From Escherichia coli (lineage in GTDB: Bacteria > Pseudomonadota > Gammaproteobacteria > Enterobacterales > Enterobacteriaceae): 64,000 nucleotides of DNA. Both the position numbers and the translations under genes were made by a program. Shown here one piece after another: positions 20,808 to 27,031 of the stretch. The stretch is taken from assembly GCF_024298765.1 (NCBI RefSeq), contig NZ_CP101210.1; one strand, 5' to 3'. Below the pieces are notes generated by a model. That model saw only the letters and a list, made by a program, of their open reading frames with translations. It was not told the DNA's origin and made no database searches. Every line of letters starts with the position of its first letter. The stretch's first letter is position 1.

Positions 20808-22172
20808 TCAGTGCTCTTTTATATATGCGGCTCTGTGACGTTCAAGTTCAATTGCACCACGATGTGATAACCAGCAAAAAATGATGCAACAAATAATACC
20901 GCAGCCAAGAAGATAAAATCCGCCATGCCAGCCAATATGATCGACCATAATACCAAACAGGCTGGTGCCCAGAGATGCACCGAAGATATAGCTCATAAAA
21001 CCACGTAAACCTACCGCGGAGCCAACAGCAAAGCTGGGCACGATCTCCATAGTCTGAACAGAAGCCAGAAATTGTGGAACGTAAATCAGACAACCAACAA
21101 TGGCAGCAAAAATTGTCACCATAAACAGTGATTCACTTTTCCAGTAGCCAATCAGGCAAATGAAAATCAGCGCCATACAAATCATCGCCAATGGCATACG
21201 ACGCCCTTTAAACAGTTTGTCTGACAACCAACCGGCAAGTAGCGTGGAAGGGATTGCGGCCCATTCAAAAAATAAAAACGCGACGCTCATTTGTTCTTTA
21301 GAAAAATGTTTCACCGTCAGCAGATAAATAGGCAACCAGCTAATCATCCCGAAGCGTACCATGTATACAAATACGTCAACCAGTGAGACATACCAGGCAT
21401 TTTTATTGCGTAATACATAAGTGCAGAAAATCTGAAAGGCACTCATGTTTTCTGGTGCTTTTACCGTCTGTCGGGTATTCAGGACGACTTTTTCTTCCGG
21501 CATCATCTCTTCCAGAGAGGGTAGACCTTCCTGACGTGGGGAACCTTTACCGAGAATCAGCACAATTACCGCAAAAACGATGGCCACGCAGGCCGGAACG
21601 ATATAGCTCGCACTTTGCCAGTGCTCGCTGCCGAGTAGGGCAAAAGCGGCACCAACAATGGGTGCAACAATACCACCACCGACGTTATGAGAGATATTCC
21701 AGAAAGCACCAACCCGACCACGCTCCCGGCGAGGGAACCAGTTAGCAATAGTGATGAAAGAAGGACCAACGCCCATTCCCTGGAAAAGACCATTCAGAAT
21801 AACCAATACCGCAAAAATCCAGAATGCGGTGCTGAATCCCAGGCCAACGTTAACGATGGCACATAACACCAGCCCACACGCCATAAAGACTTTCGGACTG
21901 GCTTTATCGGCAAGGCTACTCATCACTCCTTTGCTGATACCATAGGCGATAAGCATACAGCTACTCAGTACGCCAATTTGTGTGGCGCTGAGATCTAATT
22001 GCTCTTTAAGATAAGGCGTCGATAAGGTGAAATTATTACGCACGATATAGTATGCAAGATACCCCAGAAATACACTAAGTAACGCCTGCATACGATAGCG
22101 ACGATATGTCACCTGAATTTTCTCCGCCGGAACACTATCCGCCGCTTGCCCCGTTTTAAATATTGATAACAT
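20808..22172 (-). CDS. pgtP: Organophosphate:phosphate antiporter (MFS, UhpT/GlpT/PgtP family), likely phosphoglycerate transporter PgtP
   Basis: 454 aa, N-terminus MLSIFK... typical of GlpT/UhpT/PgtP family; divergent from a three-gene sensor operon whose sizes and types match pgtCBA. Confidence 0.75.
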   Translation of the reverse strand: MLSIFKTGQAADSVPAEKIQVTYRRYRMQALLSVFLGYLAYYIVRNNFTLSTPYLKEQLDLSATQIGVLSSCMLIAYGISKGVMSSLADKASPKVFMACGLVLCAIVNVGLGFSTAFWIFAVLVILNGLFQGMGVGPSFITIANWFPRRERGRVGAFWNISHNVGGGIVAPIVGAAFALLGSEHWQSASYIVPACVAIVFAVIVLILGKGSPRQEGLPSLEEMMPEEKVVLNTRQTVKAPENMSAFQIFCTYVLRNKNAWYVSLVDVFVYMVRFGMISWLPIYLLTVKHFSKEQMSVAFLFFEWAAIPSTLLAGWLSDKLFKGRRMPLAMICMALIFICLIGYWKSESLFMVTIFAAIVGCLIYVPQFLASVQTMEIVPSFAVGSAVGLRGFMSYIFGASLGTSLFGIMVDHIGWHGGFYLLGCGIICCIIFCWLSHRGAIELERHRAAYIKEH

Positions 22173-22263
22173 GTCTTCACCTGTATTTTATATTGATATG
22201 AACACCTGGAGTATTCTGACAATGAGAGTTATATAATTGAGATGAAACATCAAACTGAAAAAA

Positions 22264-25794: not shown

Positions 25795-27031
25795 TGAATA
25801 TTCGATTCTGCTGATTGATGATGATGCTGACGTGCTGGACGCCTACACACAGTTACTTGAACAGTCGGGCTATCGTGTTTTTGCCTGTAACAATCCTTTT
25901 GAGGCGCAGGCGTGGATACAACCAGACTGGCCAGGCATTGTGCTAAGTGATGTGTGTATGCCTGGCTGCTCTGGTATCGATTTGATGATGTTATTCCACC
26001 AGGATGATCAACAGCTCCCCATTCTGCTTATCACCGGGCACGGCGATGTGCCAATGGCAGTTGATGCGGTGAAAAAAGGCGCGTGGGATTTTTTGCAAAA
26101 ACCGGTCGATCCCGGCAAATTGCTTTCTCTGGTTGAAGAGGCACTACGCCAGCGTCAATCAATCATTGCGCGTCGTCAGTATTGCCAACAGACATTGCAG
26201 GTGGAGTTGATAGGGAGAAGTGAATGGATAAATCAGTATCGGCGACGTTTACAGCAGTTGTCTGAGACAGATATTGCCGTCTGGCTCTACGGTGCCCCTG
26301 GCACAGGACGGATGACCGGTGCACGTTATCTGCACCAATTTGGACGTAATGCACAAGGCGAATTTGTCTACCGCGAGCTGACACCAGACAATGCACCACA
26401 GCTTAATGATTTCATTGCGCTGGCTCAGGGGGGAACATTAGTGCTCAGCCATCCTGAACACCTGACGCGTGAACAGCAGTACCATCTGGTTCAGTTACAA
26501 AGCCAGGAACACAGACCTTTTCGCCTGATTGGTATTGGAGACACCTCGCTGGTCGAGCTGGCCGCCAGCAACCATATCATCGCGGAGCTCTATTACTGCT
26601 TTGCAATGACACAAATCGCTTGCCTGCCATTAACTCAACGCCCCGACGATATTGAACCACTGTTTCGCCACTACCTTTGTAAGGCATGTCAACGGCTTAA
26701 CCATCCTGTTCCGGAAGTGGGAAAAGAGATGTTCAAAGAGATGATGCGCCGCATGTGGCCAAATAATGTGCGAGAGCTGGCCAATGCAGCAGAACTGTTT
26801 ACTGTAGGAATATTACCGCTGGCAGAAACAGCAAACCCGTTGATGCACGTCGGAACCCCGGCACCGCTTGACAGGCGAGTGGAGGACGCTGAGCGACAGA
26901 TAATCACAGAGGCGCTTAATATCCATCAGGGGCGTATCAATGAGGTTGCTGAATATTTACAAATCCCGCGGAAAAAACTCTATCTCAGAATGAAAAAATA
27001 CGGTCTTAGCAAGGAGCATTATAAAAATTAA
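25775..27031 (+). CDS. pgtA: NtrC-family response regulator PgtA-like
   Basis: Receiver domain (ILLIDDDADVL...D...KPV), degenerate AAA+ central domain (GAPGTGR), C-terminal Fis-type HTH; alternative start ATG 25784. Confidence 0.75.
   Translation: MWKMLSSEYSILLIDDDADVLDAYTQLLEQSGYRVFACNNPFEAQAWIQPDWPGIVLSDVCMPGCSGIDLMMLFHQDDQQLPILLITGHGDVPMAVDAVKKGAWDFLQKPVDPGKLLSLVEEALRQRQSIIARRQYCQQTLQVELIGRSEWINQYRRRLQQLSETDIAVWLYGAPGTGRMTGARYLHQFGRNAQGEFVYRELTPDNAPQLNDFIALAQGGTLVLSHPEHLTREQQYHLVQLQSQEHRPFRLIGIGDTSLVELAASNHIIAELYYCFAMTQIACLPLTQRPDDIEPLFRHYLCKACQRLNHPVPEVGKEMFKEMMRRMWPNNVRELANAAELFTVGILPLAETANPLMHVGTPAPLDRRVEDAERQIITEALNIHQGRINEVAEYLQIPRKKLYLRMKKYGLSKEHYKN

Follow-up and report, generated by a model that had tools for sequence, protein, structure and literature searches.

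The question raised by this locus is what a phosphoglycerate transport system of the kind described in Salmonella represents in Escherichia coli, and whether its NtrC-type regulator, PgtA, still acts through sigma-54. The locus comprises pgtP on the minus strand and pgtC, pgtB and pgtA on the plus strand, at positions 20808-27031 of a 64,000-nucleotide stretch of E. coli DNA (contig NZ_CP101210.1, assembly GCF_024298765.1) that we call the window. An initial annotation, made from the sequence alone, had proposed a Salmonella-type pgt locus in an insertion sequence (IS) context, had pointed to a perfect inverted repeat as the possible activator site, and had doubted the use of sigma-54. The reading that we favor, to which we give a probability of roughly 0.85, is that of an intact, IS-flanked Pgt system in which PgtA would bind the inverted repeat upstream of pgtP and activate a sigma-70 promoter by means of an ATPase-dead AAA+ fold.

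All four reading frames are open and full length; the open reading frame (ORF) list gave 454 aa on the minus strand and, on the plus strand, a frame ending at 23788, one of 669 aa, and one ending at 27031. PgtP exceeded the cut-off of its NCBIfam equivalog NF047787 (885.8 bits against 750; residues 1-448 on model positions 1-448 of 451), PgtB that of NF047794 (1075.3 bits against 1000; model positions 2-655 of 656), and PgtA that of NF047793 (727.4 bits against 650; model positions 1-414 of 414). The NCBIfam profile search gave no match of PgtC to any PgtC-specific model; its Pfam matches are those of a periplasmic solute-binding fold (SBP_bac_6, 102.3 bits; also SBP_bac_11), and RefSeq names its product "phosphoglycerate transport regulator PgtC". 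PgtP (WP_000948757.1 in RefSeq) also passed the OPA subfamily model TIGR00881 (491.5 bits, cut-off 407.75), which places it in the OPA family of MFS transporters, and it matches MFS_1 with 180.1 bits. PgtB contains HAMP, HisKA, and HATPase_c domains, with hydrophobic segments at about residues 15-39 and 339-357 around a periplasmic domain of about 300 aa and, by motif, an H-box at His458. PgtA is composed of Response_reg (100.2 bits), Sigma54_activ_2, AAA_lid_14, and HTH_8 (41.6 bits), with the receiver Asp56 and a Fis-type helix-turn-helix (HTH) at residues 385-407; residues 140-284 are 100% identical to chain A of PDB 3N70 ("Transport activator"), so that this structure is the central domain of this very PgtA. 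In tblastn searches with all four proteins, the divergent arrangement of pgtP and pgtC-pgtB-pgtA was kept across more than 30 enterobacterial loci. These scores and this synteny bear out the initial annotation, which had recognized the system from gene sizes, order, and domain types and had set it outside the K-12 gene set; E. coli K-12 is reported to lack PgtP (PMC9306846). Judged by its sequence, the locus holds the Pgt system of enterobacteria in intact form and was already known.

The same four genes, divergent arrangement, and domain architectures were described in Salmonella by the Hong laboratory (1980s-1995; PMC7873081, PMC11077982), and the Salmonella locus also shares with the window the inverted repeat, the other intergenic blocks, and the degenerate PgtA central domain. 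The two differ in their location (an IS-flanked 9.6-kb module in genomic islands of E. coli, a chromosomal site in Salmonella), in the right arm of the repeat (TGACACA, making it perfect, in E. coli, and TGACTCA in Salmonella and most others), in the P-loop (GAPGTGR in E. coli, GE-x-GTGR elsewhere), and in VrpA, an additional activator of pgt in Salmonella that is described as absent from E. coli.

To answer the question on sigma-54, we have aligned PgtA of the window and 13 orthologues (85% down to 40% identity, Shewanella being the lowest) with NtrC and PspF of K-12. In the 14 PgtA proteins, the receiver is conserved (DDD, Asp56, Thr84, and Lys106 equivalents) and the Fis-type HTH is nearly invariant, but the features by which NtrC and PspF hydrolyze ATP and contact sigma-54 are lost. 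The Walker A motif, GESGTGKE in NtrC/PspF, reads G(A/E)xGTGR(M/T/L), with the Lys-to-Arg change in 14 of 14 (GAPGTGRM in the window). The L1 loop ESELFGHEKGAFTGA, which contains GAFTGA, is removed by a 19-residue deletion in all PgtA proteins aligned, and the L2 loop is gone from the family by a deletion of 7-11 residues. Walker B, GGTLFLDE in NtrC/PspF, is GGTLVLSH in PgtA (with RN, KN, KE, or RG at its end in other members), sensor I changes from AAT(H/N) to GIGD, and both arginine fingers are lost, the segment FREDLFHRL (pattern FRxDLxxRL) being replaced by IIAELYYCF. Thus, the degenerate Walker A (residues 170-176) that the initial annotation had noticed is one of six lost features. The GxxGxGR turn itself is invariant across the PgtA family, Gly173 being the glycine of GTGR. 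Within this turn, E. coli PgtA has Ala171 (GAPGTGR) where the aligned orthologues have Glu (GE-x-GTGR), save Shewanella (GPRGVGR), a lineage-specific difference.

The promoter region was inspected by consensus scans for both sigma factors. No match to the sigma-54 -24/-12 element TGGCAC-N5-TTGCW was found at up to three mismatches in positions 21760-22893, though the pspA and glnAp2 promoters, used as positive controls, were recovered at one mismatch. Across 34 orthologous intergenic regions, no -24/-12 element was positionally conserved, and the scattered matches with 2-3 mismatches mostly had no GG or GC dinucleotide. The sole GG-N10-GC facing pgtP (22311-22298) was rejected, as it overlaps a conserved TGAC half-site and the orthologues have GAGTCA, without GG, at this place. 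From the loss of every residue for ATP hydrolysis and sigma-54 contact, together with the missing -24/-12 element, we infer that PgtA is sigma-54-independent, and this would apply with high probability to the whole PgtA family and not to the window alone. The doubt expressed in the initial annotation was, in this respect, well placed.

Most likely, the promoter activated by phosphorylated PgtA (PgtA-P) is a sigma-70 promoter, with PgtA working as an atypical enhancer-binding protein (EBP). PgtA falls within the published definition of this class, i.e., an EBP architecture without GAFTGA and without a catalytic Walker B (PMC6158489). The GAFTGA-less relatives VpsR, TyrR, HupR, and NtrC of R. 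capsulatus work with sigma-70 (PMC6158489; bioRxiv 2023.06.06.543975), and NtrX, which is the closest full-length PDB relative of PgtA, is also an atypical EBP (PMC6158489). Brucella NtrX, V. cholerae VpsR, the NtrC proteins of R. capsulatus and Caulobacter, TyrR, and HupR have in common with PgtA a receiver, an AAA+-like domain, and a Fis-type HTH, as well as the missing GAFTGA and non-consensus Walker motifs. PgtA is, however, more eroded than these proteins: deletions have removed both L1 and L2, nothing is left of Walker B, sensor I, or either arginine finger, and its central domain is about 30 residues shorter than that of NtrC or PspF. PgtA is missing from the published list of characterized atypical EBPs (PMC6158489), and our literature searches reached no paper on its sigma-factor use, on PgtA and GAFTGA, or on 3N70. 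We consider it likely that PgtA of E. coli, of Salmonella, and of all the orthologues examined is an unrecognized atypical sigma-70-dependent EBP, the most eroded one described. The invariant P-loop-like turn, the first inner glycine of which (Gly173) is essential in S. Typhi/S. Typhimurium, suggests that the vestigial AAA+ domain is kept for phosphorylation-dependent oligomerization or for non-hydrolytic binding of a nucleotide or metabolite.

The site at which PgtA would act lies in the control region between pgtP and pgtC, the limits of which depend on the start of pgtC. The start given in the ORF list (TTG 22481) is an over-extension, and RefSeq starts the gene at ATG 22571 (405 aa). An ATG at 22517, kept in close orthologues inside the block ATATTTATGAACGGGATCACA and in frame in all of them, gives a PgtC of 423 aa and adds the positively charged n-region of a Sec signal peptide, which is then a normal one, with cleavage between MTWITNRFFSWCEIGIKTMILLLLLMDTGAVRA and Q in E. 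coli (ending ...GAVRA, then Q) and between MNGITNRFFRRGGMLSKTWALWLLAAGFSPCTA and Q in K. grimontii. The RefSeq start probably sits 54 nt too far downstream and the true start would be 22517, so that the control region would end at the preceding nucleotide (Table 1). The start of pgtA is 25784 (MLSSEY...), according to RefSeq and to position 1 of the NCBIfam model, and not 25775. The stop of pgtC and the start of pgtB overlap by 4 nt (ATGA), and pgtB and pgtA by 11 nt, an arrangement that fits a single, translationally coupled pgtCBA operon.

The perfect inverted repeat TGTGTCA-N4-TGACACA that the initial annotation had reported was located within this control region. In a phylogenetic footprint of 24 orthologous intergenic regions (the window and 23 others), the majority-base frequency is 0.96 in both arms of the dyad, compared with 0.71 for the entire intergenic region and 0.65 for the loop. 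As a family, the sequences follow the consensus TGnGTCA-N4-TGACnCA, and the lone variable base is placed symmetrically in the two arms (T/G/A on the left, T/A/C on the right), without compensatory change, most orthologues having TGTGTCA and TGACTCA. This pattern is the mark of a dimeric DNA-binding protein and suggests that the dyad is a protein-binding site. An additional conserved half-site (TTTTGAC(T/C)C in the orthologues) stands 31-32 bp from the right arm, i.e., about three helical turns, and is possibly a second, weaker PgtA site. NtrC-family regulators often use tandem dyads at a spacing of about three helical turns. The footprint supports the palindrome as a candidate activator site, as the initial annotation had proposed.

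On these grounds, and by analogy with the genetics and biochemistry of Salmonella, the following mechanism can be proposed. External 2-phosphoglycerate (2-PG), 3-phosphoglycerate (3-PG), or phosphoenolpyruvate (PEP) would be sensed by PgtC together with PgtB, which would phosphorylate PgtA, by homology at Asp56. PgtA-P would then switch on pgtP, and PgtP would import phosphoglycerate or PEP in exchange for phosphate. A PgtA dimer would bind the dyad through its Fis-type HTH, and probably also the weaker site about three helical turns away. The bound protein would recruit or stimulate the sigma-70 RNA polymerase, not the sigma-54 enzyme, without ATP hydrolysis; its central domain would be an ATPase-dead AAA+ fold in which the P-loop-like turn is needed for activity, probably for oligomerization or ligand binding only.

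Several points weigh against this reading. For E. coli, the transport specificity, the induction, the phosphorylation site, the binding of PgtA to DNA, and the sigma factor used are all inferred, and we have found no E. coli experiment on the transport of, or induction by, 2-PG, 3-PG, or PEP in the literature searched. In the older Salmonella model PgtA is a "derepressor", and many PgtA orthologues carry the database name "sigma-54-dependent". The sigma-70 consensus scan gave no minus-strand match in the intergenic region and no canonical -35/-10 pair upstream of pgtP, and the candidate -10 of pgtP, TATATAAC (TATTTCAC in the orthologues), is weak. When the AT-rich intergenic region was shuffled 5000 times with its dinucleotides preserved, 1802 of the shuffles (36%) had an inverted repeat of two perfect 7-nt arms around a loop of 0-10 nt, and, in Salmonella, the regulator VrpA, which is unrelated to VpsR, also binds the pgt promoter region.

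As for the promoter, the absence of a canonical -35/-10 pair is what is expected of a strictly activator-dependent promoter. Two conserved elements stand downstream of the dyad in the pgtP sense and are candidates, namely an invariant TTGA at a distance of about 10 bp and, at -61 to -51, TATTTCACTCT (TATATAACTCT in E. coli); their spacing of 12-14 nt is a misfit to a canonical pair. Whichever element serves as -35 or -10, the center of the dyad would lie about 50-55 bp upstream of the pgtP transcription start, a distance typical of activation by response regulators at sigma-70 promoters and nearer than the usual sigma-54 enhancers. The conserved TATAAAAT at -20 to -13 was excluded as the -10 of pgtP, as the Salmonella 3-PG biosensor works with only -435 to -25 of pgtP (PMC11077982), i.e., without this part.

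The shuffles and the binding of VrpA bear on the possibility that the dyad is not the PgtA operator at all. It could instead be a palindrome arisen by chance, a site for CRP or for some other regulator, or a hairpin or terminator in the RNA of the pgtP leader. With the loop restricted to 3-5 nt, the repeat still arose in 662 of the 5000 shuffles (13%), but its arms are conserved well above their flanks in the 23 orthologues, so that it is not a product of chance. The pattern TGTG...CACA is reminiscent of CRP half-sites, and a requirement of pgtP for cAMP-CRP has been reported; yet the invariant bases are GTCA/TGAC and not TGTGA/TCACA, several orthologues have TGAGTCA or TGGGTCA, TGTG and CACA are 10 bp apart and not the 8 of CRP sites, and the CRP effect in Salmonella was reported as indirect, via vrpA. 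A terminator-like scan flags the dyad on the minus strand with TTTTTT after it, but TGTGTCA/TGACTCA, found in most orthologues, breaks a base pair without compensation, showing that an RNA stem is not preserved. The CRP and hairpin readings were thus rejected. The binding of VrpA at the Salmonella pgt promoter means that the dyad could belong to another protein. Taken together, we regard a dyad that is not the PgtA operator as improbable, and a PgtA operator as the better account of it.

Table 1. Features of the pgt locus and its surroundings in the window; positions are counted from the first nucleotide of the window, and functional assignments of DNA elements are candidates.
Feature	Position	Strand	Basis or remarks
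Mobile module of 9.6 kb: ISEc31 fragment, truncated IS66 tnpC/tnpB/tnpA, pgtP, pgtCBA, start of a frameshifted hypothetical gene	18015-27602		blastn against BEN2908, annotations
pgtP, phosphoglycerate/PEP:phosphate antiporter (OPA family, MFS), 454 aa	20808-22172	-	NF047787, TIGR00881, MFS_1, RefSeq
Divergent control region pgtP-pgtC, AT-rich (about 43% GC in bin 22001-23000)	22173-22516		Composition, alignment of 24 sequences
Dyad TGTGTCA-caat-TGACACA, candidate PgtA operator, 92-109 bp upstream of the pgtP ATG	22264-22281		Inverted repeat, conservation
Additional conserved half-site TGACCCA	22307-22313	+	Alignment; conservation 0.89 over 22303-22312
Nearly invariant block GTGCGGATATTAACAAAT, candidate pgtCBA promoter or regulator site	22370-22387		Majority-base frequency 0.94, 24 regions
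Most conserved block AAACGGGTAA(T/G)TTTTGTCTCAA, 28-49 nt upstream of the conserved pgtC ATG	22468-22489		Majority-base frequency 0.96, top-ranked 10-nt windows
pgtC, periplasmic solute-binding-protein-like sensor partner of PgtB (probable start)	22517-23788	+	SBP_bac_6, RefSeq, orthologues
pgtB, sensor histidine kinase, 669 aa	23785-25794	+	NF047794, Pfam, hydropathy, H-box
pgtA, response regulator of 415 aa with receiver, vestigial central domain (AAA+), lid, and Fis-type HTH	25784-27031	+	NF047793, Pfam, 3N70
P-loop remnant GAPGTGR, PgtA residues 170-176	26291-26311	+	Alignment
L1/GAFTGA deletion of 19 residues (end of LNDFI, about residue 211), then Walker B remnant GGTLVLSHPEHL (Asp-Glu to Ser-His)	26402-26464	+	NtrC/PspF alignment

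A second alternative is that the E. coli pgt genes are a decaying, non-functional passenger of a genomic island, as in S. Typhi, S. Paratyphi A, and S. arizonae. IS fragments and pseudogenes are found all around the locus, and pgt seems to have decayed repeatedly: in S. enterica subsp. arizonae the matches are confined to PgtC residues 12-110, fused beside PgtA 110-414, with pgtB missing, C. koseri gave only partial PgtP and PgtB matches (both by tblastn), S. Typhi has the PgtA substitution G173D, and S. Paratyphi A a degraded pgtB (PMC11077982). These cases suggest a recurrent loss of pgt. In the window, by contrast, none of the four ORFs is truncated, PgtP, PgtB, and PgtA score above their equivalog cut-offs over full models, the regulatory blocks are conserved, and PgtA retains Gly173 and has Glu141 and His223, i.e., the functional S. 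Typhimurium residues at three positions that vary in S. Typhi. In addition, a megablast search of 5426 complete E. coli genomes with positions 20500-27300 found the entire stretch in 430 of them (about 8%); among the matches listed (25 genomes), it is 100% identical, with pgtP, pgtC, pgtB, and pgtA annotated by PGAP, and these strains come from chicken, duck, pig, human, river water, and wastewater. Decay is therefore very improbable, and the locus is better described as an intact Pgt system.

The module that carries these genes (Table 1) is found with 99.8% identity (blastn) in the avian pathogenic E. coli (APEC) strain BEN2908, where pgt lies, with ireA and IS elements, in an island adjoining tRNA-Phe that is otherwise different from that of the window. 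The module being common to both islands, the pgt genes would travel as an IS-associated cassette. The IS context claimed by the initial annotation could be specified as a truncated IS66, an ISEc31 fragment, IS30, and IS1. In other strains, pgtABCP has been placed on PAI I(5155) of IMT5155, alongside aatA, ireA, and fec (PMC4232414), in PAI V(536) and GI-pheV (PMC11537424), and on GI12 of the mastitis strain ECC-1470 (PMC5422975), and it has been recorded in adherent-invasive E. coli isolates (PMC10731797).

A third alternative keeps PgtA as a conventional sigma-54 EBP that hydrolyzes ATP and remodels the sigma-54 closed complex at pgtP. The Pfam match to Sigma54_activ_2 and the partial one to Sigma54_activat would agree with it, as would the names "sigma-54-dependent transcriptional regulator" of many database entries and the PROSITE-style lists that include pgtA. 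However, the Sigma54_activat match (PF00158) is confined to model positions 1-55 of 168, and every orthologue is without GAFTGA, the P-loop Lys, the Walker B Asp-Glu, sensor I, and both arginine fingers. The scan that recovered the positive controls found no -24/-12 element at pgtP. A review of 13 Salmonella EBPs and of the RpoN regulon makes no mention of pgt (PMC4987338). G173D is known to inactivate S. Typhi PgtA, and its authors attributed this effect to a lost interaction with sigma-54 (PMC11077982); it is more economical to suppose that the substitution disrupts the P-loop turn of a vestigial AAA+ fold. A sigma-54 mechanism thus appears highly improbable, even more so than decay, and we retain sigma-70 activation by an ATPase-dead PgtA.

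Finally, the idea of a Uhp-like system, or of another organophosphate system that is not Pgt, can be dismissed with near certainty: PgtP does match the GlpT, UhpT, and UhpC models, and an OPA transporter with three regulatory genes recalls uhpABC-uhpT, but these scores (370.5, 271.3, and 238.5 bits) are far under the respective cut-offs (632.55, 497, and 564) and under the 885.8 bits of the PgtP model, and a closest match to Uhp or another OPA system, which the initial annotation had named as the contrary outcome, did not occur.

The likeness to uhpABC-uhpT is one of logic, both systems having an OPA antiporter induced by external substrate via a histidine kinase, an accessory sensor, and a response regulator. 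The components differ, the partner being an MFS protein in UhpC and a solute-binding fold in PgtC, and the regulator being of the NarL/FixJ type in UhpA and of the NtrC type in PgtA. TorT/TorS and LuxP/LuxQ are histidine kinase systems dependent on periplasmic binding proteins, and pgt would resemble them in that a secreted protein of solute-binding fold is encoded beside, and may modulate, a kinase with a large periplasmic domain. By analogy with Salmonella, where the grounds are genetic, PgtC would contact PgtB.

Concerning the origin of the locus, a PgtC scan of species-representative genomes gave 38 loci. The carriers include Klebsiella oxytoca, K. grimontii, K. michiganensis, many Citrobacter, Pseudocitrobacter, and Salmonella enterica subsp. 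diarizonae, and also Serratia, Mixta, Raoultella, Izhakiella, and Pragia, with a distant version in Shewanella. The identity to S. enterica subsp. diarizonae is 91% for PgtP, 84% for PgtC, 83% for PgtB, and 80% for PgtA, and that to the Klebsiella and Citrobacter Pgt proteins is 79-92%; across the syntenic orthologues of Klebsiella, Citrobacter, and Salmonella, it is 86-92% for PgtP and 81-86% for PgtC. The label "Salmonella-type" used in the initial annotation is right in that the system is the same, but it is only historical, and, with the three genera about equally distant, it says nothing about the donor.

For intracellular Salmonella, 2-PG, 3-PG, and PEP are a major source of carbon and a determinant of virulence (PMC7873081). 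By analogy, pgt would allow about 8% of the complete E. coli genomes, many of them of avian or extraintestinal pathogens, to take up these compounds, and it travels on islands together with iron-uptake (fec, ireA) and adhesin genes. If our reading of PgtA is true, databases are mistaken in naming it "sigma-54-dependent", and the published account of S. Typhi G173D as a lost sigma-54 contact is mistaken as well. PgtA should then not be counted among the sigma-54 activators, a correction that alters the prediction of rpoN regulons and the interpretation of the S. Typhi pgtA loss-of-function allele. The conserved dyad would be a concrete candidate operator and a defined part for 3-PG biosensors.

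Two other blocks of the control region (22370-22387 and 22468-22489) are more conserved than the dyad among the 24 enterobacterial loci, and the second can be written as AAACGGGTAAkTTTTGTCTCAA. Either is a candidate for the pgtCBA promoter, for a leader element, or for a site at which another regulator binds.

A second, divergent pgt-like locus is present in Escherichia whittamii, Escherichia sp. E1V33, and "E. coli" SCPM-O-B-8794, with identities of 75-76% for PgtP, 56-57% for PgtC, 48-49% for PgtB, and 49-51% for PgtA and a far longer intergenic region (860-880 bp). This lineage of non-coli or cryptic Escherichia had no megablast match in the 5426 complete E. coli genomes.

The window is identical to positions 64001-128000 of NZ_CP058874.1. 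The island around pgt carries hlyE, fecIRABCDE, IS1, IS30, remnants of the IS3 family and of IS66, a cluster of phosphotransferase system (PTS) and tkt1-type transketolase genes, and a YadA-like adhesin; segments with other cargo are 4899-5783, 7023-14568, 30086-34064, and 35291-36550. Here hlyE is intact, and the ferric-citrate system fecIRABCDE is complete and bounded by IS1 and IS3/IS30 remnants; the cluster with an ascorbate-type PTS and a split transketolase resembles the APEC tkt1 island. Positions 53-516 of the window share 86% identity with the segment of the BEN2908 island (26644-27103) that is equivalent to 27143-27602 of the window. The window thus seems to carry two diverged copies of one sequence, the first (53-516) within an intact gene of the YagK/YfjJ domain type and the second (27143-27602) within the frameshifted hypothetical gene. 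After each copy comes a gene of the ProQ/FinO family, which is intact at 620-1099 and frameshifted at 27705-28213, and these paired copies and genes suggest a duplicated module of the island backbone.

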